64,000 nt of DNA from NCBI GenBank assembly GCA_963759365.1, contig CAVWYX010000007.1:29422-93421 (forward strand). The letters are read 5' to 3'. Made by a program: the position numbers and the translations under genes. Origin of the DNA: an uncultured Actinomycetes bacterium. GTDB taxonomy: Bacteria; Actinomycetota; Thermoleophilia; Gaiellales; Gaiellaceae. This document shows, piece after piece, positions 10,734 through 43,701 of this stretch (positions are counted from its first letter, which is position 1; every line of letters starts with the position of its first letter). A model generated the notes under the pieces. That model searched no databases. It had not been told where the DNA came from and saw nothing but the letters and a program-made list of their open reading frames with translations.

Positions 10734-10768
10734 CCGTGGGCGGGAATCGCCGCGACGCCACGCGGGGG
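10734..10768 (+). repeat. J1: degenerate R remnant (left end of array)
   Basis: ccgtgggcGGGAATcgccgcGACGCCaCGCGGGGG aligns with the R tail plus first bases of the cassette at 35680-35708 (GGGAATGTCACCCGACGCCGCCGCGGGGG). Confidence 0.5.
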
Positions 10769-10875
10769 TCATTCGTCGTCGTGGTCGGTGTTCGCGGTTC
10801 GATACTGCGGCCGCCCGGTGGGCCGGTAGACCTGGATCGTCACGCCCTTCGAGTCGGCTCGCGAGTCGTCGACAT
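10769..10875 (-). pseudogene. C-terminal fragment of RibD_C/DHFR-like gene
   Basis: About 105 nt collinear with 35710-35815. It encodes ...SRADSKGVTIQVYRPTGRPQY..DDE plus stop; there is no N-terminal part. Confidence 0.7.
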
Positions 10876-10897
10876 CGCCCGCTAGATACAGATGCGC

Positions 10898-11007
10898 GGG
10901 CTGCGCGAGCGTCCTCTCCCCCAGGTCTCGGTAGTTCAGGTATTACCGCTACTCCGTAGTTGGAGAGAGAACCCTCGCCTGGGCGAGTTTTGCGGAATGA
11001 CGCCCGA
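10898..11007 (+). repeat. J2: full junction L-M(v1)-H-R
   Basis: cgggctgcgcgagcgtcctctccc...ggtattaccgctactccgtagttggagagagaaccctcgcctgggcgagttttgcggaatgacgcccga. Confidence 0.9.
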
Positions 11008-11037
11008 CGACCGACGATCGTTGGCACGATCCAGATC

Positions 11038-11457
11038 ATGGAACAGGCGAATAAGGAACTCGTCCGCGCGTACACCAGGGACGTGTTCGACAATGGGGAC
11101 ATCTCTGCCGTGGATCGCTACCTGGCGCCGGACTTCGTCAATCACGTGACCGGCCGGTCAGGAACCGAGGACTTCAGGCGTCTTGCTGCTGAACTCAGTG
11201 CCGCGCCCGAGGCGTCGAACGTCATCGAGTTCATGGTCGCCGAGGGCGATCTCGTTGTCGCCTTCATGACTGTCACTCGTACCGTTCGCTCGAACACGAC
11301 CATCTTCGGCTATGCCGTCGAGGGGCGAGGTCAGTCGTACACCGTGCATCACGTCCACATCTACCGGGTAGCGGACGGAAAGATCAGGGAACACTGGGCT
11401 CTGCGTGACGACATCAGCATGCTCCGACAGCTCGGCGTGATCCAGGCCCCGACCTAG
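11038..11457 (+). CDS. SnoaL-like / ester cyclase (NTF2 fold)
   Basis: ATG 11038; MEQANKELVRAYTRDVFDNGDISAVDRYLAPDFVNH... Confidence 0.8.
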   Translation: MEQANKELVRAYTRDVFDNGDISAVDRYLAPDFVNHVTGRSGTEDFRRLAAELSAAPEASNVIEFMVAEGDLVVAFMTVTRTVRSNTTIFGYAVEGRGQSYTVHHVHIYRVADGKIREHWALRDDISMLRQLGVIQAPT

Positions 11458-11467
11458 GGACACCGGA

Positions 11468-11502
11468 GTCGGCTGGGCCAGTGTTCGGGAATGTCACCTG
11501 AG
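11468..11502 (+). repeat. J3: R-only junction
   Basis: gtcggctgggccagtgttcgggaatgtcacctgag. Confidence 0.9.
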
Positions 11503-11503
11503 T

Positions 11504-12016
11504 TTGCGGCAGTTAGCGTTAACGGCCGTGCGGGAGGGCTCGGGACAGCTTGTCCTTCGCGAGATCGAAGATCGTGATCTCGGCGTGCTGTTCGAGCACT
11601 CGAGGGATCGCGACGCTATACGGATGGCCGCGTTCACTTCGCCGGAGGCCGATGATCGAACGAGCTTCGAGCGACGGTGGGCGCGGCTGAGGAGCGACGG
11701 CTTTACGAGGAACAGGGTCGTCGAGATCGACGGTCGAGTTGTGGGTCACATTGCGAGCTTCGACTTGGAGGGTCACCGCGAGGTCACCTATTGGATCGGC
11801 CGTGAAGATTGGGGCCGCGGCATTGCCACGCGTGCCCTGCAAGAGTTCTTGCAGCTGGAGGCAACCCGTCCGCTTTACGCTCACGCTGCGAGCGACAACG
11901 CCGCGTCGATTCGTGTGTTGACGAAGTGCGGTTTCCTTATCGTGGGCGAGGGGCGCGAGTTCGCTCATGGGCGCAACGAGGAAACGGACGAGGTCGTCCT
12001 CCGACTCGATGCATGA
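11504..12016 (+). CDS. GNAT family N-acetyltransferase (copy 1; copy 2 at 36960)
   Basis: LVLREIEDRDLGVLFEH...YWIGREDWGRGIATRALQEFL. The start may be GTG 11528. Confidence 0.8.
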   Translation: MRQLALTAVREGSGQLVLREIEDRDLGVLFEHSRDRDAIRMAAFTSPEADDRTSFERRWARLRSDGFTRNRVVEIDGRVVGHIASFDLEGHREVTYWIGREDWGRGIATRALQEFLQLEATRPLYAHAASDNAASIRVLTKCGFLIVGEGREFAHGRNEETDEVVLRLDA

Positions 12017-12025
12017 CCCCAACTG

Positions 12026-12062
12026 CCCTCGGCTGCGCCAGTGTTCGCGAATGTTCCCTGAG
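12026..12062 (+). repeat. J4: R-only junction
   Basis: ccctcggctgcgccagtgttcgcgaatgttccctgag. Confidence 0.85.
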
Positions 12063-12800: not shown

Positions 12801-12849
12801 ACCTGGTCTGCGTCTGCGGGGAGCCCGCGCGAAGTACAAGGCCCGAGGA

Positions 12850-12951
12850 CTGAGCGAGCCTCCTCTCCCCTGAGGTAGTCGGGTATTACCGCTACTCAGT
12901 AGTTGAAGAGGGAACCCTCGCCTGGGCCAGTGTTCCGGAATGACCCCCGAG
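12850..12951 (+). repeat. J5: full junction L-M(v1)-H-R
   Basis: ctgagcgagcctcctctcccctgaggtagtcgggtattaccgctactcagtagttgaagagggaaccctcgcctgggccagtgttccggaatgacccccgag. Confidence 0.9.
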
Positions 12952-12972
12952 CGGGGACGCTTGGTGGCCCGA

Positions 12973-13497
12973 TTAGCTTCCCCGCGTTTCCGGGCGAATC
13001 GGCAGCATCAGTGAGCAATAGCCGTTGATCAGGGCGTAGCCGCTGTCGGTGTAGAGACGGAGAGCGGGGTCGTTGTCTTCCTCGGTCTGCACGACTAGGC
13101 GGAGTGCGCCCGACGCGATTGCAGCCGCTTGGACGGAGCTGAGAAGGGCACGACCGACTCCACGACGACGGTGCGTCGGCAGGACGAAAAGGTCTCTGAT
13201 CTGCCAGAAGTGGGCGAGCCGCAAGGATGCCGGTACTTCCATCGTGATCGCGAAGCCGACGAACCTCCCACTGTCTTCGGCGACGAACGCGCGTAGCTGG
13301 GTGCTGAGGTTCTGTTCCAGCCAACCTATTGCCTGGGAGGAGTAGGAAGCCTCGCCGTAGTGGGCGCGATACTTGTCGAAGAGCTCGGCGAGTGCTTCGA
13401 TTTCGGAGCGTGTCGGTGCGGTCAGAGTCCGAACTGAGACCGGCTCGCTGGTGGCCGAAGGACTGGCATGGGTGTTCTGACTCACGGCTCTCTCCAC
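12973..13497 (-). CDS. GNAT family N-acetyltransferase (copy 1; frameshifted copy at 21237)
   Basis: 174 aa; FVLPTHRRRGVGRALLSSVQAAAIASGALRLVVQTEEDNDPALRLYTDSGY. Confidence 0.8.
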   Translation of the reverse strand: MERAVSQNTHASPSATSEPVSVRTLTAPTRSEIEALAELFDKYRAHYGEASYSSQAIGWLEQNLSTQLRAFVAEDSGRFVGFAITMEVPASLRLAHFWQIRDLFVLPTHRRRGVGRALLSSVQAAAIASGALRLVVQTEEDNDPALRLYTDSGYALINGYCSLMLPIRPETRGS

Positions 13498-13524
13498 GAA
13501 AACGGTATCGCCAAGCGGCAGTAA

Positions 13525-13633
13525 CCTCGCCTGGGCCAGCGTCCTCTCACCTGAAGGCCCTTCCGGTATTACCGATACTCAGTAGTTACACGCTGGATGC
13601 GGGGTCGGCCAGGGTCCGCGATGTCACCCGACG
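13525..13633 (+). repeat. J6: L-M(v1) then variant spacer and R tail
   Basis: cctcgcctgggccagcgtcctctcacctgaaggcccttccggtattaccgatactcagtagtt|acacgctggatgcggggtcggccagggtccgcgatgtcacccgacg. Confidence 0.85.
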
Positions 13634-14437
13634 ATCGCCGTCGACAAGTGGGTTGCGTGTTCGCGTATGTGTGCCTCGGCGCTTTCCCAGCTCTCAAGGT
13701 GACCTTCGGCGAGCAGTCGGGCATACGGCGGTTTGCCAAGAAAGCCGAGGTCGTGAATGAGCTGTGCCTCGCGGCCGCAGCGTTCCACAGCGACATCCAA
13801 GATGTCGGCGGGGAAAATCGCGGCCCCGTAGCCTTCGCGGAAGACATGGATGCGACGCCTTGTCTCGACCAGGCTGAGCTGGGAAGCGGGCATCAGAGGG
13901 ACGAAGCTGAGTAACGCCCAGGCGAGATCCCACGAGCGTCGGCCCGGGCCAGCGAGGTCCCAGTCAATGAACGTCCATCCGTCGGCCCCGCGAACGAGGT
14001 TCCAGGGCGCGAGATCGTTGTGACAGAGCACCTCGCTAGGCCCGCGCGGGTCGCGACCCCCGGTCTGACCACGGCTGGCCGTCCAGCAACCGAAAGCCTG
14101 TGACAGCATCGTGGTAGCGGCGAATCAGAGCGGAGATTTCGGCAAGCGCCTGGTCGTCAGCCACAAGGTCGAAGTGGTCTGGCCACACGACCGCTCCATC
14201 GATGTAAGTGAGGATCTCGCGGCCCCGCTCGTCGATCCCTCGTACGCGAGGCGCCCCCTCGAACCCGCTCGACTCCAGGTGCCGCAGCAGTTCGTGGACA
14301 CACGGTGTCCACGGTCCGGTGGGGTGTCGCACGGTCGAACCGACCTTCACGACCTCCGCGCTCATATTCCCGCCTGAGAGCTGCTCCTCCACACAGACAT
14401 CCTGCCGCTCAAACCAGCGCCGCGCGACCACGCCCAA
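13624..14437 (-). pseudogene. aminoglycoside/choline-kinase-type phosphotransferase (APH fold), frame break about 14040-14105
   Basis: The N-part ORF is 14036..14437 and the C-part ORF is 13624..14109. The C-part carries [13 protein letters not shown] and IDWDLAG catalytic motifs. Confidence 0.7.
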
Positions 14438-14457
14438 ACGCCTCCGATGGGATCTCT

Positions 14458-14563
14458 GGGCTGCGCGAGCCTCCTCTCCCCGTTGTCAGTAGTCGGGTGT
14501 TACCGCTACTCAGTAGTTGGAAAGAGAACCCTCGGCTGGGCCAGTGACTCGGACAGGTCGACG
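14458..14563 (+). repeat. J7: L-M(v1)-H with degenerate R
   Basis: gggctgcgcgagcctcctctccccgttgtcagtagtcgggtgttaccgctactcagtagttggaaagagaaccctcggctgggccagtgactcggacaggtcgacg. Confidence 0.8.
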
Positions 14564-14688
14564 GCGGCCGGATCGCATCTTGCCGCGAATACTGGGTGCC
14601 GGAGGCCTACGAGGAACCAGTCGCTGAGCGCGCTCGCTGGTTCGAGCCGATGTAGACGAGACTGGCAGGGAACGCTTGCAGAAGGATT

Positions 14689-14730
14689 CTGGCTGCGCGA
14701 GCGTCCTCTTTAGGCCAGCGTCGTCTCTGC
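14689..14730 (+). repeat. J8: two tandem L-like half sites, no M
   Basis: ctggctgcgcgagcgtcctcttta + ggccagcgtcgtctctgc. Confidence 0.45.
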
Positions 14731-14796
14731 ATGCAGCCACGCTGCGTCGCGTCCCTCAGGATCGAGGTCGTCCACGCCATTCGATATGAAACGCAG

Positions 14797-15892
14797 ATGG
14801 CCGCGGCAGAGTCCCCCTCGGGGGCCAGGGACACCGGTCGCCGCGGGGTCGATGTCTCGATATCGATCCGGACGATCCTGCTGGTCGCCGGCGCCGTCGC
14901 CATCGCGTGGGCGCTGGCGTCCATCGCGAACGTTCTGCTCGTCATCTTCGTCTCCGTCTTCAGCGTCGCCGTCCTCGTGCCGGTCGTGACTGCGATGGAG
15001 CGGCGGTTGGGCTGGAGCCGGAGGCTGTGCACCACGGTGCTCGTGCTGGGGATCGTGATCGTCATCGGTGCGGTCGCGCTGGTGCTGGTGCAGTCGATCA
15101 GCGGCGCCGTGCACGGACTCAGCGACGACCTACCTCAGATCGTCGACAAGGTCAGGCGCAGCGATCTGGGCAACTTCATCAACGGCGGGAGCGGCTCCCT
15201 CGACACGCTGAGGAACCACGCGAGCGACATCACCCGAGGAGTGGGCAAGGTGTCGGGCGGCGTCGCCCACCTCGGAGTCTCGGCCTTCGGGGCGGTCACA
15301 CTCGCCTTGTCGGTCATCTTCCTCACGCTTTTCGGGCTGGTCGACGAACCACGCTGGCGGGACTGGATCGGGAGCCTGCTGTATCGGGACAAGCGAGAGC
15401 GCTGGCTGCGGGTCACGGATCGGATCATCCAAACGACCTCGCGCTACATGCTCGGCAACCTGGCCATCTCCGTGATCTGCGGGACCGTCTACGGCGTCAC
15501 CGCGGTGGTCCTCGGCCTTCCGTACCCTCTCGCCCTAGCGGTGATCGCGGGGATCCTCGACCTCATCCCCAGCATCGGGGCCACGCTCGCCGGCATCATC
15601 ATCGCGATCGTCGCGCTGTCGGTCAGCCTTCAGGCCTTGATCGTCTTCCTGATCGTGATCGTGGTCTACCAACAGATCGAGAACTACATCCTGCAGCCGA
15701 CGATCATCGGCAAGGCGGCCCAGGTATCCGGCTTCACCGTGCTCGCCAGCGTCCTCGCGTTCGGGGCGCTCTTCGGGTTGATCGGGGCGATCATCGGCGT
15801 GTCCGATCGCGGCCGGGCTCCAGATCGTCGCGGACGAGCTCACGGCCGGCAGAAGAGCTCGCATCGCCGCCGAGGACGCCGCGAACAAGTAG
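14797..15892 (+). pseudogene. AI-2E (PerM/UPF0118) family transporter, one-base frame break near 15801
   Basis: Polytopic ORF with ...VYQQIENYILQPTIIGKAAQVSGFTVL. After AIIGV the natural C-terminus PIAAGLQIVADELTAGRRARIAAEDAANK plus stop (15890-15892) lies in the next frame. Confidence 0.7.
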
Positions 15893-16136
15893 CCGGCCCT
15901 AACGGTCGGGGTGGGCGCACACCCCTCGCGCGCCGGACGCTGCGTACGCACGCGAGTGTCCCTCCACGACGGGAACTTCCGGGGCGGCGATGCCGCAGGT
16001 CAGCGCAGCAGACTGGCGACGGTGTTGATCAGCAGGGCGACGATGACGGACGTGAACAGGAACGCGAGCGGCGCGTGCCGCGTCGCCGTCCGCCGAGCGA
16101 AGGATGCTCGCCAAGGCGGACGGTCATCGCTCGGGC

Positions 16137-18095
16137 TCAGGCGCCCTCTCGCCCCGGCTCGGCGGCCAGTTCGGTGACGCTTTCGGCGAGGATGATGCGC
16201 GCGGCGGCCTCGACGAGCGCGAGGTGCGAGAACGCCTGGGGGAAGTTGCCGAGGTGCCGGCCGGTGTCGACGTCGAGCTCCTCCGCATAGAGGCCGAGCC
16301 CAGATGCGGCCTTGACGAGGCGCTCCATCAGGGCTCTTCCCCGCTGTGTCTCGCCGATGAGCGCCAACGCCGAGACGAGCCAGAAGGAGCAGATGAGAAA
16401 GGTGCCCTCCTTGCCGGACAGTCCATCGTCGGTTTCTTCCGTGCGGTAGCGCAGTACGAATCCACCCTCGCTCAGCTCGTCCGCGACTGCGAACACCGTC
16501 GCGCGGAGCCTTGCATCGTCGGGCGGCAGGAACCCGAAGATGGCGGCGAGGAGTGCCGAGGCGTCGAGCGCGTCGGTGTCGTAGTGCTGGCGAAGCACTC
16601 CGCGCTCGCTGACCCCATGCTCGAGGATGTCGGACTTGATCGCCGCCGCGCTCTCTGCCCAAGTCGCCACAAGCGCTGCTTCTCCGGCGATGGTTGCGAG
16701 TCGAGCTGCGCGGTCGAGGGCGAGCCAGCACATGAGCTTCGACGACACGTAGTGCCGCGGCTCGCCGCGCGCCTCCCAGATGCCCTGATCCGGTTGACGC
16801 CACACCGCTGTGGCGCACTCGGCCTGCGCCTGCACGAGCGGCCACAGGCGCCGCGGAATACGCCGGCTGCGCCGGCAGTGCAGTAGGGCCGAGTCGAGTG
16901 CGGCGCCGTAGACGTCGTTCTGCCGCTGGTTGAACGCGCCGTTGCCGATGCGGACAGGCTGCGCGCCGTCGTAGCCGGCCAGATCTTCGCGGAGCGTCTC
17001 GGTCAGATCGCGGCGACCGTCGATCCCATACATGATCTGCAGCCCGCCGTCGTCGTTGCGGTCGAGGTCGGCCATGAATTGCATGAATTCGTCGGCCTCC
17101 CAGTCGAGCAGCAGATAGTGCAACGCCCGCAGCAGGAACGTCGAGTCGCGGATCCAGGTGTAGCGGTAGTCCCAATTCCGCTCCCCGCCGGGTGTCTCGG
17201 GGAGCGAGGTCGTCAGCGCCGCCACCGTCGCCCCTGTCGGCATGTAGGTGAGGCCCTTGATCGTCAGAGCCGACCGTTCGATCAGCGGCCCGAGCTCGTG
17301 GTCGGGGATCGCCGCCTGCGCAATCCAGTTGCGCCAGAACGTCGTCGTCGCGTCGAGCTGCTCGAATGCCTCGTCGACCGTCGTCGGTAGATGCGCTTGC
17401 TCGCCCCAGCCGAGCGCGCAGTAGGCCGTCTCGCCGGCGCGCAGGACGTGCCGGGCGCGAGCACGGCCACCCTCGATCCCGAGGAGCATGTCGGTTTGCA
17501 GCTCGACCGCCTGGTCGGCGCCGCTCACCCGCGCCTGGTGGCGATCTGCGGCGAGCGTCCACTCGCCCACAACGCGGCCGTAGTCGAATGCGGGCTCACA
17601 CACGAGCTCGATCTCCACCCTGCCGTCGATGCACGTGGCCGTGCGCACGAGCGCGTGGTCGGCATCCTCGTCCGCGGGCGGACGCGTGTGGGGTGTGACC
17701 GTATCTTCCGCACGGCGTGGTCCCATCGTGAGCGCCTCGCGCACGACCACCCAGCCCGTGGCTGTCTTCCACGAAGTGACGAGCACGTTCGTCCCCGGCT
17801 CGTAGATCCGGGCACGCGGAACGCTGATCCCGAATGGTCCGAAGCGGAAGCCGCCCGCGCCGCGGTCGAGCAACGCTCCGAATACGCTCGGCGAGTCGAA
17901 GCGCGGAACACACAGCCAGTCAACCGTGCCGTCCGGGGCCACGAGCGCGCCCGTGTGGCAGTTGGAAAGGAAGCCGTAGTCGGCGATGGGCGTGAACGGC
18001 GACGGTGCCGCTCCACTCTGCGCGAACGCCACGTTCTGCCGCACGACAGCTTCGCGCGCACCGTCAGACGATGTCGTCGAGCTCACCCACATCAT
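16137..18095 (-). CDS. glycoside hydrolase family 15 (glucoamylase/trehalase-like)
   Basis: 652 aa; IADYGFLSNCHTGALVAPDGTVDWLCVPRFDSPSVFGALLD...ERNWDYRYTWIRDS. Confidence 0.85.
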   Translation of the reverse strand: MMWVSSTTSSDGAREAVVRQNVAFAQSGAAPSPFTPIADYGFLSNCHTGALVAPDGTVDWLCVPRFDSPSVFGALLDRGAGGFRFGPFGISVPRARIYEPGTNVLVTSWKTATGWVVVREALTMGPRRAEDTVTPHTRPPADEDADHALVRTATCIDGRVEIELVCEPAFDYGRVVGEWTLAADRHQARVSGADQAVELQTDMLLGIEGGRARARHVLRAGETAYCALGWGEQAHLPTTVDEAFEQLDATTTFWRNWIAQAAIPDHELGPLIERSALTIKGLTYMPTGATVAALTTSLPETPGGERNWDYRYTWIRDSTFLLRALHYLLLDWEADEFMQFMADLDRNDDGGLQIMYGIDGRRDLTETLREDLAGYDGAQPVRIGNGAFNQRQNDVYGAALDSALLHCRRSRRIPRRLWPLVQAQAECATAVWRQPDQGIWEARGEPRHYVSSKLMCWLALDRAARLATIAGEAALVATWAESAAAIKSDILEHGVSERGVLRQHYDTDALDASALLAAIFGFLPPDDARLRATVFAVADELSEGGFVLRYRTEETDDGLSGKEGTFLICSFWLVSALALIGETQRGRALMERLVKAASGLGLYAEELDVDTGRHLGNFPQAFSHLALVEAAARIILAESVTELAAEPGREGA

Positions 18096-18160
18096 CTCCT
18101 CGTCGGGACACGTCGAGCCGGCGAGCTCACCGCGAGCGTCGGTCGCGGTAATCCGGCGGT

Positions 18161-18589
18161 CTAGGAGGAGCTCGCCGCAAGCTGCGCGGCGTTCTCGCGT
18201 GCCAGCATCGCGTCGAGCGTCGCGTACTCGGCCTCGACGATCGCTGACATCGCAAAGGCGATCGCGTCCGTCGCGTCGGCCTCAGCCCAGTCGGCGTCAC
18301 TCTCGGCCACGTTGGCGTCGACTGCCGCCTTCTTGGCATCCATGCGCTGCCGAACACGCTCGATGTGGCGGTTCAAGTCGGCCTGCATCTCCCGCCACTG
18401 GCTCTCTCCCTCCTTAGCGGCCTGGTCAGTCTTGGCCCGCAGCTCGGCCGCACGTTCATCAGCGTCCCGCCTCGCCTCGTCCACCTTCGCCTTGATCTCT
18501 GCTTGATTCTGCTCGGCCGCAGCCTTGACGCTGCGATCCGCCTTTTCGACCTGCTCCTTGAGCTGCGCGAAGTTGTCCGTCACCGACAT
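18161..18589 (-). CDS. hypothetical coiled-coil protein
   Basis: 142 aa, charged helical repeats. A C-terminal paralog fragment lies at 6797-6960. Confidence 0.55.
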   Translation of the reverse strand: MSVTDNFAQLKEQVEKADRSVKAAAEQNQAEIKAKVDEARRDADERAAELRAKTDQAAKEGESQWREMQADLNRHIERVRQRMDAKKAAVDANVAESDADWAEADATDAIAFAMSAIVEAEYATLDAMLARENAAQLAASSS

Positions 18590-18974
18590 CCCACTCCTCC
18601 TTTCGGTACGTACCGTTGAAGCTACGCCTCCACACCGGGGCGGTCAACCGGATCTGGGTGGGGCAGCCCACTCGGGCGGCGGCGGCGGCTCGCTCGCGGG
18701 GCTTCAACTCAGCTGGTTCGATCCCCGTCCTCGCGGGCGATCGGCAAGGCTGGGGGCCATTGATATCCCCCTAACACCTCACCCCTGTCGGGCGATGGCG
18801 TTCGTCAAGGCTGGCAATGCGTACTCGACAGCGGCGACGGGCAAGGCATCTTCCGGGGGCAAACGTGAACTGAGCGCAACCCGCATGGCTAGTGGGCTAG
18901 CGCCGATAGGACGCTGCGGCCGACCGAGGCGCCGGCGAGAGCGGTTCGGGCATATCGTCGCCCGGTAGAACGAC

Positions 18975-19009
18975 GCTTCCCTGGGCCAGCGTTCCGGAAT
19001 GACGCCTGA
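18975..19009 (+). repeat. J9: R-only junction
   Basis: gcttccctgggccagcgttccggaatgacgcctga. Confidence 0.9.
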
Positions 19010-19039
19010 TCCTTGGGCTCCCAACCTTAGGATTGTGAC

Positions 19040-19444: not shown

Positions 19445-19462
19445 ACCGGTCCGTAAGCCCTT

Positions 19463-19520
19463 CGTCTGAGCGAGCGTCTTCTCACCTGAGGTAGTCGGGT
19501 ATTACCGCTACTCAGTAGTC
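19463..19520 (+). repeat. J10: L-M(v1), no H; only a weak R-like stretch about 19596-19635
   Basis: cgtctgagcgagcgtcttctcacctgaggtagtcgggtattaccgctactcagtagtc|acgtgg. Confidence 0.8.
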
Positions 19521-20536: not shown

Positions 20537-20566
20537 CCGAGTTTCCTGCCGCAGCACTGCGGGCTT

Positions 20567-33209: not shown

Positions 33210-33268
33210 CTCCGGGCCACGCTCTCGATTAACCGGGCAGCAGAGACTCCGCCGACCCAAGGTCATCC

Positions 33269-34989: not shown

Positions 34990-35025
34990 GGTCGCCTGCG
35001 CCAGTGTTCAGGAATGTCCCCGAGC
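34990..35025 (+). repeat. J29: R-only junction
   Basis: ggtcgcctgcgccagtgttcaggaatgtccccgagc. Confidence 0.85.
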
Positions 35026-35589: not shown

Positions 35590-35697
35590 CCCTTTGGGTG
35601 AGCGTGCTGTCACTAGAGCGCAGTCCGTGGTAATGGCGACTCTGTAGTTGGAGAGAGAACCCTCGCCTGCGCCGGCGTTCGGGAATGTCACCCGACG
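35590..35697 (+). repeat. J30: full L-M(v2)-H-R
   Basis: ccctttgggtgagcgtgctgtcactagagcgcagtccgtggtaatggcgactctgtagttggagagagaaccctcgcctgcgccggcgttcgggaatgtcacccgacg. Confidence 0.9.
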
Positions 35698-35709
35698 CCG
35701 CCGCGGGGG

Positions 35710-36363
35710 TCATTCGTCGTCCTGCTCGGTGGTGGCGGTTGCATACTGCGGGCGTCCGGTGGGCCGATAGACCTGGATCGTTACGCCCTTCGAGTCGGCT
35801 CTCGAGTCGACCAGGTCAAGCGCAATGTCCGGGCCGGCCTCGGGGAACAGCCGCGTGCCCTGGCCGACGACCACGGGGACGATGAGCAGGTTGATCTCGT
35901 CGACCAGGTCGTTTTCGAGCAGCCATCGGATCAGGGCACCGCTGCCGTGCACCTGCAGCTCACCCGCCGGCTTGGCTTTCAGCTCGCCGATTGCCGCCGC
36001 GAGGTCACCGGAGAGGAGGGTCGTGTTCGCCCAGCGCGGTTCGGTGAGCGTGGTCGATGCGAGGTACTTGGGCTTCGTGTTCAAGGCAGCTGCGATCTGG
36101 TGGTTGCCCGGATCTTCCAGCGCGGCGCGAGCCCGCTCCTCTGCGCCCCAGTAGCCGGCGAAGAGCTCGTAGGTCCGCCGGCCGAACAGGAACGCGTCGG
36201 CGCGCTGGTAGGTCTGGTTGATGAACGTCATGGTCTCGTTGTCGAACACCCCCATGGCCCATCCGCCGCGCTCGAATCCGTTCCTGCGGTCCTCATCCGA
36301 CGCGCCGCCGTTTCCCTGCATCACTCCATCGACGGTGACTTGCGTCATGGTGGTCAGTTTCAT
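35710..36363 (-). CDS. RibD_C / dihydrofolate-reductase-like family protein
   Basis: 217 aa; MKLTTMTQVTVDGVMQG...FGRRTYELFAGYWG...LQVHGSGALIRWLLENDLVDEINLLIVPVVVGQGTRLF. Confidence 0.85.
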   Translation of the reverse strand: MKLTTMTQVTVDGVMQGNGGASDEDRRNGFERGGWAMGVFDNETMTFINQTYQRADAFLFGRRTYELFAGYWGAEERARAALEDPGNHQIAAALNTKPKYLASTTLTEPRWANTTLLSGDLAAAIGELKAKPAGELQVHGSGALIRWLLENDLVDEINLLIVPVVVGQGTRLFPEAGPDIALDLVDSRADSKGVTIQVYRPTGRPQYATATTEQDDE

Positions 36364-36921: not shown

Positions 36922-36958
36922 TCGTCGGCTGGGCCAGTGTTCGGGAATGTCACCTGAG
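36922..36958 (+). repeat. J31: R-only junction (consensus-like)
   Basis: tcgtcggctgggccagtgttcgggaatgtcacctgag. Confidence 0.95.
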
Positions 36959-36959
36959 T

Positions 36960-37472
36960 TTGCGGCAGTTAGCGTTAACGGCCGTGCGGGAGGGTTCGGG
37001 ACAGCTTGTCCTTCGCGAGATCGAAGATCGTGATCTCGGCGTGCTGTTCGAGCACTCGAGGGATCGCGACGCTATACGGATGGCCGCGTTCACTTCGCCG
37101 GAGGCCGATGATCGAGCGAGCTTCGAGCGACGGTGGGCGCGGCTGAGGAGCGACGGCTCTACGACGAACAGGGTCGTCGAGATCGACGGTCGAGTTGTGG
37201 GTCACATTGCGAGCTTCGACTTGGAGGGTCACCGCGAGGTCACCTATTGGATCGGCCGTGAAGATTGGGGCCGCGGCATTGCCACGCGTGCCCTACAAGA
37301 GTTCTTGCAGCTGGAGGCAACCCGTCCGCTTTACGCTCATGCTGCGAGCGACAACGCCGCGTCGATTCGTGTGTTGACGAAGTGCGGTTTCCTTATCGTG
37401 GGCGAGGGCCGCGAGTTCGCTCATGGGCGCAACGAGGAAACGGACGAGGTCGTGCTCCGACTCGATGCATGA
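36960..37472 (+). CDS. GNAT family N-acetyltransferase (copy 2 of 11504..12016)
   Basis: Collinear with 11504-12016 at a constant offset of 25456, with roughly ten substitutions by eye. Confidence 0.8.
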   Translation: MRQLALTAVREGSGQLVLREIEDRDLGVLFEHSRDRDAIRMAAFTSPEADDRASFERRWARLRSDGSTTNRVVEIDGRVVGHIASFDLEGHREVTYWIGREDWGRGIATRALQEFLQLEATRPLYAHAASDNAASIRVLTKCGFLIVGEGREFAHGRNEETDEVVLRLDA

Positions 37473-37482
37473 CCCCAACTGT

Positions 37483-37607
37483 CCTCGGCTGGACGAGCGT
37501 GCCGTCTCTCGAGCGCAGTCGGGGGTAAACGCAACTCTGTAGTCACTGGCGCGACTATCGGCAGCGACCCCGTCGCTTGGGCCAGCGTTCGGGAATGACG
37601 CCTGAGG
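37483..37607 (+). repeat. J32: L-M(v2), spacer, R
   Basis: cctcggctg|gacgagcgtgccgtctctcgagcgcagtcgggggtaaacgcaactctgtagtc|actggcgcgactatcggcagcgaccccgtcgcttgggccagcgttcgggaatgacgcctgagg. Confidence 0.85.
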
Positions 37608-37636
37608 GGGCTCTCCCGTCGCGAAAGTTCAACCCG

Positions 37637-38083
37637 CTAGCCGATCTGCTCGGCCAGCCCGATGAGGATCCCCTCAGGGCCTCGGACGTAACAGAGCCGA
37701 TACTGATCCTCGTACTGCGCCAGTTCACCAACCAACTCGGCTCCGTGCGAGCGGAGCCGGGCGAGCGTATCGTCGATGTCCTCGACGGCGAACATGATGC
37801 GTAGGTAGCCGAGAGCGTTCACGGGGGCGTTCCGGTGATCGGCGACCGCAGGCGGCGTGAGAAATCGCGAGATCTCGAGCCGGCTGTGGCCGTCCGGCGT
37901 GCGCATCATGGCGATCTCGACGCGCATGTGGCGCAGTCCAGTGACGCGCTCTGCCCAGTCTCCTTCGATCGTGGCTCGCCCTTCGAGCTCGAGGCCGAGC
38001 TCGGCGAAAAAAGAGATAGCGGCATCGAGGGATTCCACCACGATGCCGACGTTGTCCATCCGTTGAAGCGTCACGCGGCCCAC
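37637..38083 (-). CDS. VOC/glyoxalase family protein
   Basis: 148 aa; MDNVGIVVESLDAAISFFAELGLELEG...CYVRGPEGILIGLAEQ. Confidence 0.8.
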   Translation of the reverse strand: MGRVTLQRMDNVGIVVESLDAAISFFAELGLELEGRATIEGDWAERVTGLRHMRVEIAMMRTPDGHSRLEISRFLTPPAVADHRNAPVNALGYLRIMFAVEDIDDTLARLRSHGAELVGELAQYEDQYRLCYVRGPEGILIGLAEQIG

Positions 38084-38158
38084 ACTAGTCCTGTTGTCGC
38101 TTCGACACGCCCACCGGACGAGCGCACAATTGGTGCGGCGAGGTCTTGGACCATCACC

Positions 38159-39190: not shown

Positions 39191-39229
39191 GCGCTCGCCT
39201 GGACCAGCGTGCCGGAATGTCACCCGACC
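39191..39229 (+). repeat. J33: R-only junction
   Basis: gcgctcgcctggaccagcgtgccggaatgtcacccgacc. Confidence 0.85.
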
Positions 39230-39327: not shown

Positions 39328-40218
39328 ATGACCACCACCAGCCTGCTCCCTGACGTCGGGATCGAGCTTCGGGAGGGTTATGCCAAGGTCGGCGATCAGA
39401 CCTTGCATTACGTCGAGGCCGGTGACGGGCCGCTGATCGTTCTGTTGCACGGCTTTCCCGAGTTCTGGTTCGGTTGGCGGCTACAGATCGAGCCGCTCAC
39501 GGCGGCGGGTTTTCGGGTAGTCGCCCCCGACACGCGTGGCTACAACCTGTCATCGAAGCCAGAGGGCTTCGAGTCCTACGGCGTCGACCTGCTCGCCGCC
39601 GACATCCGCGGCCTCATCGGAGAACTCGGTGCCGAGTCTGCGCTGTTGGTCGGTCACGACTGGGGCGGAAGCATCGCCTGGACCATCGCGATGAACCACC
39701 CCGAGGTGGTCGACCGACTCGCCATCCTCAACGCGGCCCATCCGCGGCGGCTCTCGGAGGGACTGCACCACCCGAGCCAGCTTCGGAAGTCCTGGTACTT
39801 CTTCTTCTTCGCAACACCCGGACTGCCCGAGGAGATCGTGCCCGCCAGAGACTGGCACTTCTTCCGACACTTCCTGCATGACGCGAACCCGCCTTACACG
39901 CCGCAGGAGATCGAACGCTACATCGAGGCGTGGTCACAGCCGGGGGCAGCGGCCGGGATGATCAACTACTACCGAGCCTCGGTACGACAGTCCCAGAAGG
40001 AAGCCGCAGCAAAGCTTCGCCCGATCTCGGCGCCGACACTGGTCATCTGGGGGGAGCGCGATTCCTACCTCGGCTCCGACCTCGCCGAGCCCGACCGCGA
40101 CGACGTGCCCAACCTCGACCGCGTGGAGCGCCTGGCCGACGCGTCCCACTGGGTGCATCACGACGAGGCTGAACGCGTCAACCAACTGCTCATCGACTTC
40201 TTCGCCGCCGCCGGGTAA
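39328..40218 (+). CDS. epoxide-hydrolase-like alpha/beta hydrolase
   Basis: ATG 39328 after AGGGAGG; LLHGFPEFWFGWR, GHDWGG, HWVHHDEAERVNQLL. Confidence 0.85.
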   Translation: MTTTSLLPDVGIELREGYAKVGDQTLHYVEAGDGPLIVLLHGFPEFWFGWRLQIEPLTAAGFRVVAPDTRGYNLSSKPEGFESYGVDLLAADIRGLIGELGAESALLVGHDWGGSIAWTIAMNHPEVVDRLAILNAAHPRRLSEGLHHPSQLRKSWYFFFFATPGLPEEIVPARDWHFFRHFLHDANPPYTPQEIERYIEAWSQPGAAAGMINYYRASVRQSQKEAAAKLRPISAPTLVIWGERDSYLGSDLAEPDRDDVPNLDRVERLADASHWVHHDEAERVNQLLIDFFAAAG

Positions 40219-40249
40219 ACGCAACTCTGTAGTTACACGCTGGGTTGCG
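40212..40249 (+). repeat. J34: M(v2) only, overlaps the hydrolase stop codon
   Basis: cgggtaaacgcaactctgtagtt|acacgctgggttgcg (the same post-M sequence type as J6 and J20). Confidence 0.65.
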
Positions 40250-40256: not shown

Positions 40257-40856
40257 CTACGACGTGTGGACGGGATAGCGCAGATGCGTGACACCCACAC
40301 CGGTGACGACTGTCGGATTCCCGAGGACTGCCGGTGTGTTCGCGAGGTGGTCGAACAGCCGCACTCCTGCGCCTAGCAACACGGCAGCCAGATCGATGTG
40401 GATCTCGTCGAGCAGTCCGGCGTCCAGGCACTGCTGGATCGTTTGGGCGCCGTGCACTCCCACGGACTTCGGGCCGGCAGCCGATTTCGCTCGAGCAACG
40501 GCGCTTTCGATGCCGTCGGTGACGAACTGGACTGTCGAGCCGGGCCGTGGCCAGCCGTCCGGCACGTTGTGGGTGGCGACGAAAGCGGGGACATCCCACG
40601 GGTGCCGGCCGCCCCAGCCGTCGGCGCGCTCGAACGTGCGCCGACCGGTGAGCATGGCGCCGACCTCAGCCTGCAAGCCTCTCAGGTGGTCGGCGCTCGG
40701 CGCCGAGACGTGGAACGTCATGCCGGATGTCGTGCTCGCTGTGGGGACCTCGACGTCGCCCGAGAAGTACCAGTCGAAAACCTCGGCGACCCCGTCGTTC
40801 GCGTCGGCGACGTACCCGTCGAGAGACATCGACATGATTGCGACCACCTTGGTCAT
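40257..40856 (-). CDS. RibD_C / dihydrofolate-reductase-like family protein
   Basis: 199 aa; MTKVVAIMSMSLDGYVADANDG...GRRTFE...VGVHGAQTIQQCLDAGLLDEIHIDLAAVLLGAGVRLF. Confidence 0.8.
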   Translation of the reverse strand: MTKVVAIMSMSLDGYVADANDGVAEVFDWYFSGDVEVPTASTTSGMTFHVSAPSADHLRGLQAEVGAMLTGRRTFERADGWGGRHPWDVPAFVATHNVPDGWPRPGSTVQFVTDGIESAVARAKSAAGPKSVGVHGAQTIQQCLDAGLLDEIHIDLAAVLLGAGVRLFDHLANTPAVLGNPTVVTGVGVTHLRYPVHTS

Positions 40857-40903
40857 GGTGCAGCTCCATCGACGGAGACGAGCGTCGTGGTCGTCAGTTT
40901 CAT
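40853..40903 (-). pseudogene. 16-codon N-terminal remnant of a 35710-type DHFR-like gene, now a uORF overlapping the 40856 start (ATGA)
   Basis: MKLTTTTLVSVDGAAP plus stop. The first ~50 nt plus ~110 nt of leader are collinear with 36312-36475. Confidence 0.5.
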
Positions 40904-41012
40904 GGGTTCGTCCTTTCTCTCGTGGTGGTCTTTCTCGTTTACGACCGCACCGAGGCGCGGATCTCATCGGTCCCAGCAGAGGCCGTCCCGGCCGAATCGA
41001 GCCTGAGGATCT

Positions 41013-41026
41013 GATACTCAGTAGTT
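41013..41026 (+). repeat. J35: M-core remnant
   Basis: gatactcagtagtt, directly abutting the conserved DHFR leader. Confidence 0.45.
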
Positions 41027-41039: not shown

Positions 41040-42251
41040 CTACGCGCGAGCGGGGAAGAGTCGTTTCTCCGTTCCGAGGTGTGAAGCCCATTCGAGCTTG
41101 GTCGCGCGCGCGAAGAGCATGTAGGCGCGAAGCGCGTCCCGCATCGCGTCGACGAAGCCGTCGGCGCGGCGCGGGTCGAAGCCGTCCTCCCACCAGACGT
41201 CGAGCACCTCCACGCGGGCTTGGTCCCGGTCGATCCGCGGTTCGATCCGGCCGACGAAGCGGTCGCCGAAGGAGATCGGGAGCACGTAATAGCCCCAACG
41301 GCGCTTTGCCGGCGGGAAGAAGCCCTCCCACACGTAGGCGAAGTCGAACATGCTCGCAAGGAGGGCTGTGTCCCACAGCAGCGAGTCGAACGGGGCGATG
41401 AACGCGACGGAAGACGTCGGCTCCGGCGGCGCCTGCAGCAGGGCGAGCTCTTCGGCGAGGACGAGGCGCTTGCCGCGCACGCCCTCGACCTCGACGGGCA
41501 CGAGTGCGCCGAGCTCGACCAGTTCGTTGCGCAGATCGGTGCGCACCGGCGGATCGGCGATGCGGGCGAACGTACCGCCGGCGCCGCCGGGCCCGAGGAG
41601 GCCGTGGGCTCGGTACCGGGACAGGAGCTTGTGCCGGAGCTGTTCTCGCTCCGACACCTCGTGCGCGAGCACCTCGGCCGGAAGCAGCCGTTCGAGAAGG
41701 TCGTAGTACCGGATGTTGCCGTCGCGGCGGGCGAGGCCGATCGCGCCCATGACGGTGTACGCCTCGAGCACGGCACGCACGGCGTTCTCCGGCATCCCGA
41801 ACCAGTTCTTCGTCGGGCCGCTCTCCCGCTCGAAGTCGGCCGAAGACAGCGGCCCGTCCGCCCGGATGCCTTCGAGGACGCGCTCGGCCACCGCCGTGTT
41901 GTCGGCGAGTGCCTGGGAGTGGAACTTGGGCCCCTTGCGGCCCATGGCATGACGGAACCAAGGGAACTCGGTCGTCGGGACGAATGACAGCGCCTTGTTG
42001 GTCGCCTCGAAGATCTCACGGCGCTCGTAGAGCAAGTCGCACCAGGCGGGCTCGTAGCCGGCGACGCGTGCGTGCAGCACGAGATCGTGGTTCCGGCCGG
42101 CGACCGCGATCGGGTCGAACTGGATCGACCCGAGCGTGCGGAAGACCTCGAGCACCGCGTCGGGCCCACCCTCGAGGGATCGCGCCGGCGCAAGGCGGTG
42201 GCGGGCTACGAGGAAGCGCCGCGCGGCGTCGGCCGTAACCTTCACCGACAT
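41040..42251 (-). CDS. winged-helix YcaQ/AlkZ-like (DUF1006) putative DNA glycosylase
   Basis: 403 aa from MSVKVTADAARRFLVARHRL...GSIQFDPIAVAGRNHDLVLHARV...WGYYVLPISFGDRFVGRIEPRIDR. Confidence 0.75.
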   Translation of the reverse strand: MSVKVTADAARRFLVARHRLAPARSLEGGPDAVLEVFRTLGSIQFDPIAVAGRNHDLVLHARVAGYEPAWCDLLYERREIFEATNKALSFVPTTEFPWFRHAMGRKGPKFHSQALADNTAVAERVLEGIRADGPLSSADFERESGPTKNWFGMPENAVRAVLEAYTVMGAIGLARRDGNIRYYDLLERLLPAEVLAHEVSEREQLRHKLLSRYRAHGLLGPGGAGGTFARIADPPVRTDLRNELVELGALVPVEVEGVRGKRLVLAEELALLQAPPEPTSSVAFIAPFDSLLWDTALLASMFDFAYVWEGFFPPAKRRWGYYVLPISFGDRFVGRIEPRIDRDQARVEVLDVWWEDGFDPRRADGFVDAMRDALRAYMLFARATKLEWASHLGTEKRLFPARA

Positions 42252-42292
42252 GACGCTACCCCTTGGGCCGTTGGCGGCCCAAGCGCAGGCCG

Positions 42293-42372
42293 ACTCGCCT
42301 GAGCGAGCGTAACTGGCAGCCGAGCACAGTCTGTCGTCCGGCGGAGCGATCTGCTCGGGAATGTTCCCTGGG
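42293..42372 (+). repeat. J36: L, M remnant, R
   Basis: actcgcctgagcgagcgtaactggcagccgagcacagtctgtcgtccggcggagcgatctgctcgggaatgttccctggg. Confidence 0.65.
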
Positions 42373-42405
42373 CGATGAGAGGCCATCTGGAGGAGGATCG
42401 ACTGC

Positions 42406-43221
42406 GTGGGCGAGATGCGGCCGGGCTTGCGCGAAACGTTCGAGTCTGCTGCGGATGGTTATGACGCCGCGCGACCGAGCTACCCCGAGCAGCTTTTCGA
42501 TGACCTCGTCGAGCTCGCCGAGCTACCCCCGCGCGCCCGGCTCCTGGAGATCGGCTGCGCGACTGGAAAGGCGACGCGTCCACTGCTCGAACGTGGTTTC
42601 TCGGTCGTATGCGTCGAGTTGGGTGAGCGCCTCGCCGAGCGCGCGCGCGCCAACTTGGCCGGCATGCCCGCCGAAATCCATGTTGCCCCGTTCGAGGTCT
42701 GGGAGAACGAGCGCGAACAGTTCGACCTTGTCTACGCGGCGACCGCATGGCACTGGATCGACCCTGCGATCCGCTACCGCAAGGCGTACGAGTTGTTGCG
42801 ACCGACGGGTCATCTCGCCTTCTGGAGCGCGCAGCACGCCTTCCCCGTCGACTACGACCCCTTCTTCGCCGAGATCCAGGAGGTCTACGACGCCATCGGC
42901 GAAAGCCGCCCCGGAGAATGGCCGCCTACTCCACCCGATCGTGTCCCCGACGATGTAGCGGAGATCGAAGCGACCGGCCTGTTCGAGGGGATCCACGTTC
43001 GCCGGTACGTCTGGGAGACGGAGTATTCGGCCGACGAGTACATCGCCCTCCTCGACACCTTCTCCGGGCATATCGCGATGGAGAGATCTAGGCGAGCTCG
43101 CCTCTACGGCGAGATCCGACGCCGGATCGGGCGTCGCACACCGTCATCGGTGCGGCGGCACTGGATCGCGATCCTCCATGTGGCACGCCGCAAGCACGCC
43201 GCCGGTCACGCCAGGGCTTGA
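42406..43221 (+). CDS. class I SAM-dependent methyltransferase
   Basis: 271 aa; RLLEIGCATGKATRPLLERG motif I. Confidence 0.8.
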   Translation: MGEMRPGLRETFESAADGYDAARPSYPEQLFDDLVELAELPPRARLLEIGCATGKATRPLLERGFSVVCVELGERLAERARANLAGMPAEIHVAPFEVWENEREQFDLVYAATAWHWIDPAIRYRKAYELLRPTGHLAFWSAQHAFPVDYDPFFAEIQEVYDAIGESRPGEWPPTPPDRVPDDVAEIEATGLFEGIHVRRYVWETEYSADEYIALLDTFSGHIAMERSRRARLYGEIRRRIGRRTPSSVRRHWIAILHVARRKHAAGHARA

Positions 43222-43237
43222 GGCGGCAGCGGCTTCG

Positions 43238-43287
43238 GGAGGGAGCGAACCCTCGCGTGGGCCAGCGTTCGCGAATGTCACCCGACG
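43238..43287 (+). repeat. J37: H-R junction
   Basis: gggagggagcgaaccctcgcgtgggccagcgttcgcgaatgtcacccgacg. Confidence 0.85.
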
Positions 43288-43673
43288 CGAGCTCGTCGAG
43301 ACGCCTTGACGGGTGCAACCGTCCTGCGCATCACGCAATTCTTCTTTCCCTTGGGCCGCTCGTAGCTGAAGCCGACCTCCTCGAACATGCTGCGCGTGGC
43401 GCTATAGAGGAACTGGGACCGCATCTTCTCGCCCTGCAGGTCGTGCGGATAGCCCTCCACCACGCCGCCGCCCGCCTTCGCGATCAGATCGAGGGCTCCA
43501 CGGACCGCCACGGCTGCGAAGCCTTTCCGCCGATAGTCCCTGTCGACGAAGATGCAGGTGATGCGATAGGCAGGCGGCTTCCCCAACCAGCAGCCGCCGA
43601 ACCCACACCCATTGTGCTTCTCGACGAGCCGCGCGAAGGCATCCCACGTCGTGGCGCGCATCCTGCCTGGCAT
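43278..43673 (-). CDS. GNAT family N-acetyltransferase (short form)
   Basis: 131 aa; WRITC-type core YRITCIFVDRDYRRKGFAAVAVRGALDLIAKAGGGVVEGYP. It looks shorter than usual for this subfamily, and its 3' end overlaps J37. Confidence 0.7.
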   Translation of the reverse strand: MPGRMRATTWDAFARLVEKHNGCGFGGCWLGKPPAYRITCIFVDRDYRRKGFAAVAVRGALDLIAKAGGGVVEGYPHDLQGEKMRSQFLYSATRSMFEEVGFSYERPKGKKNCVMRRTVAPVKASRRARVG

Positions 43674-43701
43674 AGTCGGGTATTACCGCTGCTCCGTAGT
43701 C
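43673..43701 (+). repeat. J38: terminal M(v1) copy (right end of array)
   Basis: tagtcgggtattaccgctgctccgtagtc|accgag. It starts at the GNAT start codon. Confidence 0.7.

Follow-up and report, generated by a model that had tools for sequence, protein, structure and literature searches.

The 64,000-nt stretch analyzed here (the window) belongs to contig CAVWYX010000007.1 of a Gaiellaceae bacterium (Thermoleophilia), and coordinates given without a locus name are positions in it. Between ~9,842 and 44,580, the window carries one junction element about 40 times, with every copy on the plus strand and zero copies in shuffled sequences; these landmarks divide the region into about 40 units, most of them with a single gene, and the arrangement appears to be a hitherto undescribed means of gathering and reshuffling accessory genes. 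A repeat search of the window found families of 15 to 24 co-oriented copies between ~9,965 and 43,703. A profile hidden Markov model (HMM) built from the window copies gave 30 matches (E < 0.01), all on the plus strand and all within 9,877–43,290, while the best match on the minus strand reached only E = 0.4 and the 29 kb of window flanks contained no copies. The exact pattern CCAGYGTTCNGGAATGWCNCCYGA matched nine times and a 22-mer of the hairpin module described below (≤3 mismatches) 13 times, as compared to 0.00 matches for each in shuffles; the ungapped 33-nt consensus, with up to nine substitutions allowed, matched 26 times on the plus strand and 0 times on the minus strand. The repeat is confirmed as real and far above chance, and the total of ~40 landmarks, reached once hairpin-only and decayed junctions are counted, agrees with the 38 copies in a single orientation that had been reported in a preliminary description of this DNA. 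For comparison, we used at least 119 loci listed by a motif scan of 185,579 species genomes, each as a stretch of 8 kb (L-numbered).

The preliminary description had placed the array at 10,734–43,701, beginning after the gene at 10,053–10,733; the region was correctly located, but both edges were slightly too narrow. On the left, a remnant of a hairpin-module end, CCCTGTAGT/CAC (9,842–9,852; a slash marks a boundary here and below), is followed by two core motif copies with seven (9,868–9,900) and six (9,964–9,996) mismatches to the consensus. Because these three landmarks lie to the left of the gene at 10,053–10,733, which encodes a protein with a metallo-β-lactamase (MBL) fold, this gene is a cassette inside the array rather than part of the flank, and the array starts about 900 bp further left than had been proposed. 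On the right, the array continues past 43,701 to ~44,580; the last cassette encodes an NAD(P)-binding protein (43,858–44,544) and is followed by a decayed motif read by eye (CTCGCAACCCAACCGATTCCGATGTGGTCGCTCAG; 44,545–44,580), and in L073 and L048, the same gene stands between two core motif copies. The flanks contain ordinary chromosomal genes (rhomboid, hydrolase, glycosyltransferase, LPG synthase, glycerate kinase, xseA, and putA). A plus-strand α/β-hydrolase gene (7,949–8,782), with orthologues at a motif-free locus in L120 and L121, represents the left chromosomal anchor, and a gene encoding an LPG-synthase transmembrane protein (46,192–47,190, plus strand) the right one. At 3 kb from the array, a PpoB2 copper-chaperone gene (5,280–6,778) points in the opposite direction; its counterpart in L112 (958–2,461; 80% identity) is placed exactly between two motif copies, and a minus-strand match to the motif tail with four mismatches is located near it (5,193–5,210). 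This region may be an old, decayed, inverted cassette.

While the repeat itself had been correctly recognized, it is not the single junction element initially described; it consists of a universal 33-nt core, TCGCCTGGGCCAGYGTTCSGGAATGWCNCCYGA, and a hairpin module. Long junctions in the window comprise a first core without the polar arm (..CTCGCC TG CGCGAGCGTCC), a module of ~50 nt (TCTCCCC..GTCGGGTATTACCGCTACTCAGTAGT TGGAGAGA), and a complete second core. The module terminates in ...ACTCAGTAGT and presents two sequence variants (..GTCGGGTATTACCGCTACTCAGTAGT and ..GGGGATAAAGACAACTCTGTAGT) with a sharp end at GTAGT. We identified 23 copies in the window (10,897–43,700), and further copies in L078 (3,490–3,610), L079 (139–6,430), and L045 (4,056). 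Because it is confined to these four places among the window and the 119 listed loci, we regard the module as a lineage-specific addition and rejected it as a universal part of the site. At eight or more places, the module alone, without cores, marks a unit boundary and is followed by CAC, TAC, or GAC; the module may be a mini-cassette without an open reading frame (ORF) between two cores, or a second recombination point.

All junctions are on the plus strand. Behind the MBL-fold gene, a decayed motif (..CCGTGGGCGGGAATCGCCGCGAC; 10,734–10,760) and a truncated cassette remnant (10,761–10,868; 90% identical to 35,702–35,809) are followed by a long junction of core without polar arm, hairpin module, and full core (10,897–11,007). 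Two short junctions with core copies at 11,469–11,501 (one mismatch) and 12,029–12,061 precede a long junction with a mismatch-free core (12,846–12,950), a first core with a hairpin module ending in GTAGT/TAC (13,527–13,586; decayed tail at 13,613–13,632), and a long junction with a second core cut after CCAGTGA (14,457–14,547). The core copy at 18,977–19,009 closes the single 4.4-kb unit (14,522–18,967), which is present as previously described and contains an AI-2E transporter gene, a GH15 gene, and a 142-aa ORF. Next come a first core with a module ending in GTAGT/CAC (19,462–19,519), a module end alone of the variant ..CAACTCTGTAGT (20,062–20,085), a module end with a partial left half-site (20,565–20,613), and a module with a core carrying a 1-nt deletion (21,141–21,214). 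Long junctions follow at 21,790–21,912 (left half-site duplicated), 22,573–22,677 (core with 0 mismatches), and 24,201–24,345 (tandem 20-nt insert after GTAGT); in the last of these, a tandem duplication of ~20 nt (GACAGAGGCGACATCCGCGGT GACAGAGGCGACATCCGGAGAG; 24,263–24,305) lies between the module end and the next core.

Long junctions with a variant hairpin are located at 25,999–26,105, 26,536–26,643, 33,267–33,372, and 35,590–35,695, and another long junction at 27,050–27,160. At 27,908–28,024, a hairpin module (GTAGT/TAC) is separated from the core by 57 nt, and at 37,485–37,605, a first core with a variant hairpin (GTAGT/CAC) is separated from the next core by 30 nt. A decayed core with eight mismatches (29,189–29,221) stands before a long junction with a second core cut after GGGAAG (29,256–29,351). 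Core motif copies were also identified at 30,361–30,393, 31,126–31,158, 31,688–31,720, 32,651–32,683, 34,992–35,024, 39,195–39,227, and 43,253–43,285, as well as at 36,925–36,957, where the copy opens the second copy of the GNAT cassette at 11,469. Hairpin-module ends alone are found at 40,212–40,233 (GTAGT/TAC, the boundary of a RibD_C cassette), 41,003–41,025 (..ATACTCAGTAGT/TGC), and 43,666–43,700 (GTAGT/CAC), and a decayed junction at 42,295–42,372 retains a box (42,297–42,310) and a tail (42,355–42,372). Duplicated cassettes had been reported before and are present as three pairs, i.e., 11,469–12,036 and 36,925–37,492 (the GNAT cassette), 12,876–13,586 and 21,141–21,849, and 14,248–14,461 and 29,452–29,665; for the truncated gene remnants also reported, one was seen (10,761–10,868, matching 35,702–35,809).

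Units delimited in this way had been described as holding one small gene between co-oriented sites, and over 291 units the median length is 635 bp, with one ORF occupying 78% of a unit. Gene orientation within the arrays is random (112 plus versus 132 minus across 244 units; 11 and 7 in the window), extending the mixed orientation noticed earlier. By Pfam, the window cassettes encode at least seven GNAT acetyltransferases, four cupins, two glyoxalase/bleomycin-resistance proteins, three RibD_C reductases, three α/β-hydrolases, two MBL-fold proteins, two methyltransferases, two AAA_18 kinases, an APH fragment, an ion channel, and one each of SnoaL, YCII, TetR, MFS, LanC-like, Nudix, and AlkZ-like proteins, and such functions (GNAT, cupin, glyoxalase, RibD_C, α/β-hydrolase, MBL, methyltransferase, and Nudix) are typical of accessory genes, in agreement with the accessory-type content initially proposed. 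The commonest cassette family consists of large zinc-ribbon/adenylate-cyclase/AAA/TPR (LuxR-type) proteins of 440 to 1,175 aa in 15 of the 119 listed loci (e.g., L006:260–3,787, L016:3,122–5,572, L034:3,476–5,743, and L038:421–3,360, with 11 further loci); many of these genes lie between two motif copies, and their lengths vary.

All 119 listed loci come from soil metagenome-assembled genomes of Thermoleophilia, Gaiellaceae, Solirubrobacterales, or unclassified Actinomycetota, with families including Gaiellaceae and Solirubrobacteraceae. The listed stretches contain 360 profile matches, and 88 of them present two or more copies; in 87 of these 88 multi-copy loci, the copies are co-oriented, an outcome in favor of the preliminary description, which had named occurrence in both orientations as the mark of an ordinary repeat. 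The sole exception is L071, with a convergent pair about 1 kb apart (6,005 on the plus strand and 6,991 on the minus strand). The motif is strictly intergenic in the listed loci, and several arrays can occur in one genome, on separate contigs or hundreds of kb apart (L070/L084, L054/L100, and L046/L094). Viral contigs gave 0 motif matches, and PLSDB plasmids nothing beyond weak gene-level matches to Streptomyces; carriage by phages or plasmids was rejected on these results. Motif orientation was also compared with GC skew, which was positive for 67 of 118 loci (p = 0.17), and a tie to the replication strand was rejected as not significant.

Evidence that the units move comes from their neighbors. 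In a BLAST comparison with the 119 listed loci, 14 window cassettes presented nucleotide matches of 85 to 98% that end at the junctions, each in a different genome, and each matched cassette has other neighbors in the other species (one cassette per match). In L015, the cassettes at 19,025–19,441 and 37,578–38,127 sit side by side, with 18 kb between them in the window, and the RibD_C cassette (40,257–40,967) has hairpin-module ends as its boundaries in the window but core motifs in L056. Of the 69 motif pairs from different loci, 32 have only the upstream flank in common, 36 only the downstream flank, and one has both; with one flank alone shared in 68 pairs and the altered adjacency in L015, cassette content and order are clearly not conserved. 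Such conservation had been named as the finding that would speak against mobility, and its lack favors the preliminary description. Genes travel together with the motif. The protein encoded by the glyoxalase cassette (37,637–38,083) has 7,940 database relatives at E ≤ 1e-50 with 88 to 99% amino-acid identity, mostly on short soil-metagenome contigs, and this cassette is very abundant in soils; its context differs between L015, L122, L123, L124, and the window, L123 and L124 being mini-arrays of two to three sites among core genes.

The array is absent from the orthologous locus of relatives whose flanking hydrolase is 82 to 86% identical, where 34 kb contained no motif; the distance from the hydrolase to the LPG-synthase gene is 9.3 kb in L121 versus 37 kb in the window. 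The motif-free locus is still variable (L120:3,340–12,525 and L121:10,846–20,129): about 9 kb between the hydrolase gene and a zf-CDGSH gene in L120 are missing from L121, and both loci hold small GNAT, glyoxalase, and flavodoxin genes. Because the locus varies without the motif too, the array sits in a pre-existing hotspot of variation.

The core site was characterized in an alignment of 416 copies from the window and the 119 listed loci, anchored on CAGYGTTC with the C of CAG as position 0. Conservation jumps at −10 and ends at +22, with identity above 85% at most core positions; only a weak G[GA]AC-N-C signal is found upstream, and the sequence downstream of the motif shows no conservation. 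The site is polar, spans ~40 bp, and occurs once per junction. It consists of (i) a weakly conserved left half-site (G[GA]AC-N-CTCGCC), which is part of the 3′ end of the upstream cassette; (ii) an invariant central TG; (iii) a strongly conserved right half-site (GGCCAGYGTTC); and (iv) a 16-nt asymmetric arm, SGGAATGWCNCCYGAG, at the 5′ end of the downstream cassette. The arm (+8 to +23) has no mirror partner, which makes the site polar, while positions −16 to −6, on the left of the central TG, mirror positions −3 to +7 on its right in degenerate form, with mirror complementarity at a mean of 5.2 of 11 positions versus 2.9 in a control.

No covariation was detected in these copies, as observed pairing equals the expectation from independent columns, and mutual information revealed subfamily associations only and no Watson–Crick pairs. 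DNA folding energies relative to shuffles gave z-scores from −2.0 to +0.4, and the alifold consensus contains a short GAAC/GTTC stem only; an attC-like folded site was rejected on these grounds together with the lack of covariation. Because the sequence is conserved without Watson–Crick covariation, the core appears to be a duplex site recognized by a protein, rather than a folded attC or an RNA. Rfam produced no match over the window at the gathering threshold and none over the array at E ≤ 1, for which reason a known RNA or DNA family was rejected; the window contains no tRNA or tmRNA genes. Earlier remarks on short junctions and on a missing RYYYAAC...GTTRRRY pair hold: the core has 33 nt, the only GTT in the logo is followed by C in 96% of the copies (GTTCSGG), and no RYYYAAC partner is conserved, the left GAAC being present in fewer than half of the copies.

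The point at which flank homology changes could be mapped within this site. Motif pairs homologous upstream only are linked through −6 and show no linkage at −3, +3, +17, and +20; pairs homologous downstream only are linked from ~+3 onward and not at −6. The mutual-information matrix likewise falls into two blocks, one on the left covering −10 to −6 and one on the right covering −3 to +20, with the division between −6 and −3, and the 68 informative pairs place the switch ~8 nt 5′ of GTT. In the duplicated GNAT cassettes, identity stops right after ...CTCGGCTG, and in the duplicate pair at 14,248 and 29,452, it stops at ...CTCTGGGC/TG; no flanking (target) duplications were found at the boundaries of duplicate cassettes. 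From the alignment, the linkage switch points to the central TG of the imperfect dyad. If homologous recombination were at work, most crossovers should fall within the right arm, which is long and identical, and they do not; we take this as the main argument that the exchange point would be defined by an enzyme.

The only transposases seen near the motif belong to the IS110 family of insertion sequences (IS; DEDD_Tnp_IS110/Transposase_20), as insertions into the motif in L122 (3,552–5,973, inside an array) and in L125–L129 (e.g., L125:5,900–6,200 and L127:3,060–3,417). In both cases, the elements split the motif at one fixed point, CCAG/YGTTC; the split in L122 reads ...TGCGCCAG / IS / AGTGATCCGGAATG, and the right-hand side of the insertion in L125 reads ...AATGAC / AGTGAGTTCCGGAATG. 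These elements are insertions into the motif and parasites of the site. IS110 was rejected as the cassette enzyme, as no member of the family was found in the window or the 119 listed loci and its ends are unlike cassette ends. Elements of the IS1111 type target attC sites and also repetitive extragenic palindromes (REPs) (PMC11187229).

We consider it probable that the units are mobile, mostly single-gene cassettes exchanged by site-specific recombination at a new polar site of ~40 bp, with a recombinase acting in trans. This enzyme, encoded elsewhere in the genome, would recombine two sites at or beside the central TG; two direct repeats would release a circle consisting of one cassette and one site, and this circle could re-enter at any other site, in the same genome or, after transfer, in another species. 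Polarity of the site would give every insertion the same orientation and would thereby produce co-oriented arrays. Because cassettes carry genes in either direction, they must supply the signals for expression themselves. A 2-bp centre between inverted half-sites, combined with an accessory arm, is the geometry of serine and DEDD/IS110-type recombinases; judged by site geometry, the enzyme may belong to one of these classes, and it could also be a tyrosine recombinase. The chances seem to us about evenly balanced that Thermoleophilia possess a cassette system of their own, built from parts unrelated to integrons: a 40-bp polar duplex site, crossover at a dinucleotide, a recombinase whose gene lies away from the arrays and whose class has so far had no link to cassette capture, chromosomes with several arrays each, cassette-borne promoters, and frequent exchange between species.

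Several observations weigh against cassette exchange by a recombinase in trans. The array-bearing DNA searched for recombinases amounts to ~0.95 Mb, and phmmer was run with IntI1, XerD, and IS608 TnpA queries on all ORFs of at least 90 aa in the window and the 119 listed loci. No recombinase or transposase was found among the window ORFs by Pfam or by phmmer with IntI1 and XerD, as the preliminary description had stated for intI and other recombinase or transposase genes. Tyrosine recombinases, unrelated matches of the phage or Xer type, occur in only four of the 119 listed loci (L069, Xer-like; L002; L051; and L070) and at no common position relative to the arrays, and a serine-recombinase motif was not found in the array-bearing loci. 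Pfam detected no recombinase families among 150 ORFs at the array edges, and ORF clustering detected no conserved gene at 54 left and 54 right edges (108 in total). The distribution data cover the window and array neighborhoods; the crossover map rests on 68 pairs with few variable columns, positions −3 and +3 being weakly linked to the downstream side; some window boundaries fall after ...GTAGT instead of at the core TG, which a simple model leaves unexplained; and the circle is a step that we infer. Clustering of all ORFs and Pfam on the recurrent clusters likewise revealed no linked recombinase, and such an enzyme was rejected after the tyrosine, serine-motif, ORF-clustering, edge-ORF, and Pfam searches. 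L070 contains two paralogous phage-type tyrosine recombinase genes on the minus strand (1,536–2,051 and 4,399–5,097), frameshifted or truncated and separated by 3 kb; between the end of the first gene and a solitary motif copy there are 24 nt, and this is the only recombinase directly beside a motif.

The same facts can be read in other ways. The copies could be a selfish intergenic repeat similar to a REP or a miniature inverted-repeat transposable element (MITE), possibly mobilized by an HUH enzyme of the REP-associated tyrosine transposase (RAYT) type and gathered in accessory regions, with gene shuffling as a by-product of homologous recombination. The size of 33 to 40 nt and the imperfect dyad resemble REPs, the motif is strictly intergenic with several clusters per genome and no linked recombinase, and IS110-family insertions occur at a fixed motif position, as those of IS1111 do in REPs and attC. 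We nevertheless judge this reading unlikely, as REPs usually occur in both orientations and in inverted pairs, while the copies in 87 of the 88 loci are co-oriented whatever the gene direction, with none in the 29 kb of window flanks or the 34 kb of orthologous locus; moreover, genes move with the motif, the linkage switch coincides with the centre of the dyad instead of falling within the longest run of identity, and phmmer, a weak test in this case, found no IS200/RAYT/TnpA-like ORF in the ~0.95 Mb of array neighborhoods. That last result also bears on a single-stranded DNA system, in which an HUH/Rep-like nuclease (in the style of IS200/IS605, IS91, or rolling-circle replication) would nick a dyad hairpin in or near the CTGG loop and non-autonomous cassettes would insert beside a resident copy. 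Crossover at the apex of a potential hairpin (GAACCCTCGCC-TG-GGCGAGTGTTC), co-oriented insertions without target duplication, and the second boundary type of the window, just 3′ of a hairpin at GTAGT/, would suit such a system; with no covariation upholding the hairpin, folding close to that of shuffles, and no clear relation between orientation and GC skew, it appears quite improbable.

That the array is a true but very divergent integron or a cluster of attC sites lacking integrases (CALIN), in which the motif is a minimal attC and an IntI-type integrase lies far from the arrays, seems to us very improbable. In favor of this reading, the array is organized like a sedentary integron, a GTT triplet and an inverted repeat GAAC...GTTC are present in the motif, and there are known CALINs with no integrase nearby (PMC9024848). 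However, 96% of the copies have C at position 4 of what would be the GTTRRRY box; the site has 33 nt conserved in sequence rather than structure, the linkage switch lies ~8 nt upstream of G/TT, gene orientation is random, phmmer found no IntI-like ORF in the ~0.95 Mb of array-bearing DNA, and Actinobacteria presented no complete integron in surveys from 2022 (PMC9024848). A regulatory or structural DNA or RNA element near accessory genes (i.e., an operator, promoter, terminator, or processing site) without any role in mobility could explain the high sequence conservation, the palindromes TTCSGGAA and CTGGGCCAG, and the GGAAT box, which we presume to resemble the −35 elements of extracytoplasmic function (ECF) σ factors. 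Such an element can hardly be reconciled with an orientation independent of gene direction, coincidence of the motif with synteny breakpoints, the lack of Rfam matches even at E ≤ 1, and the lack of conservation 3′ of the motif, and we would be surprised if this were the explanation.

The textbook example of a device that collects and reshuffles accessory genes is the integron, and if exchange of cassettes at the polar site by a recombinase in trans is correct, the cassette-array architecture would have evolved more than once, as a second, independent invention of the integron principle. The motif is spread over a class that dominates many soils, and single cassettes occur in thousands of near-identical metagenome copies, so that there would be a large unannotated pool of mobile genes, mostly encoding detoxification and small-molecule-modifying enzymes, for which the 33-nt motif would provide a simple sequence tag for harvesting from metagenomes; a recombinase with a compact 40-bp site could be a possible tool. 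Full-text searches yielded no relevant description of integrons in Thermoleophilia, of integron-like elements in Actinomycetota, of cassettes in the orders concerned, or of the motif strings.

Among known systems, MITEs and IS elements have terminal inverted repeats and target-site duplications, whereas the units described here lack both, their 5′ end being conserved and their 3′ end weak. REPs and bacterial interspersed mosaic elements (BIMEs) with RAYT transposases are similar in being imperfect palindromes of ~35 nt that are extragenic, clustered, and targeted by the IS1111 family; unlike the motif, they are found genome-wide, in both orientations and often in inverted pairs, and do not delimit mobile genes, while the copies in the array neighborhoods examined here are co-oriented, lie in accessory arrays, and coincide with cassette breakpoints. 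The sfx sites of the Rci shufflon share an asymmetric layout with one conserved and one poorly conserved arm around a short crossover core, but they are inverted repeats that drive inversions in one gene cluster, while the direct repeats found here would imply excision and integration of whole genes. Xer dif modules (pdif, on Acinetobacter plasmids) and integrative mobile elements exploiting Xer (IMEX) also present short duplex sites around small gene modules and no adjacent recombinase gene, and IMEX stack in tandem with co-oriented sites; Xer dif modules need no dedicated recombinase gene, as the host provides the enzyme from another place in its genome. However, pdif sites alternate in orientation, whereas all sites here are direct repeats, and Xer sites have an 11-6-11 bp layout (28 bp), as compared to half-sites 2 bp apart with a 16-nt polar arm; we take the core site to have no recognizable XerC/XerD arm consensus, including the actinobacterial dif consensus.

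The closest likeness in organization is to sedentary integrons and CALINs (e.g., those of Vibrio, with VCR sites), which share tens of compact, mostly one-ORF units, co-oriented and clade-homogeneous sites, accessory content (GNAT, glyoxalase, and cupin), cassettes that are duplicated or truncated, a cassette order that differs from genome to genome, and targeting by the IS110/IS1111 family. In function, the system is integron-like, since co-oriented sites delimit single-gene units and such units are found singly elsewhere; the earlier reading of an integron-like array with a non-attC junction and no linked integrase, which did not claim an integron, is supported part by part. An integron carries beside its array an intI gene, which encodes a tyrosine recombinase with an IntI-specific insertion, together with attI and Pc; the arrays here have no IntI at their edges and no attI platform, and the sites lack RYYYAAC/GTTRRRY core sites. 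An attC is a structure-conserved hairpin of 57 to 141 nt with extrahelical bases, while the site here has 33 to 40 nt and is conserved in sequence; its conserved part belongs to the downstream cassette, and the switch mapped with the 68 informative pairs lies at the dyad centre, in contrast to the G/TT of R′ where integron crossover takes place. Most ORFs of integron cassettes lack a promoter and point in the direction of the array, whereas gene orientation here is random, and several arrays as well as solitary cassettes occur per genome. The host class, Thermoleophilia, belongs to a phylum without complete integrons, which fits both the actinobacterial host proposed earlier and surveys reporting essentially no integrons, and no complete one, in Actinobacteria (PMC9024848). 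The system thus works like a sedentary integron yet departs from it in each of these molecular features, and it is not an integron.

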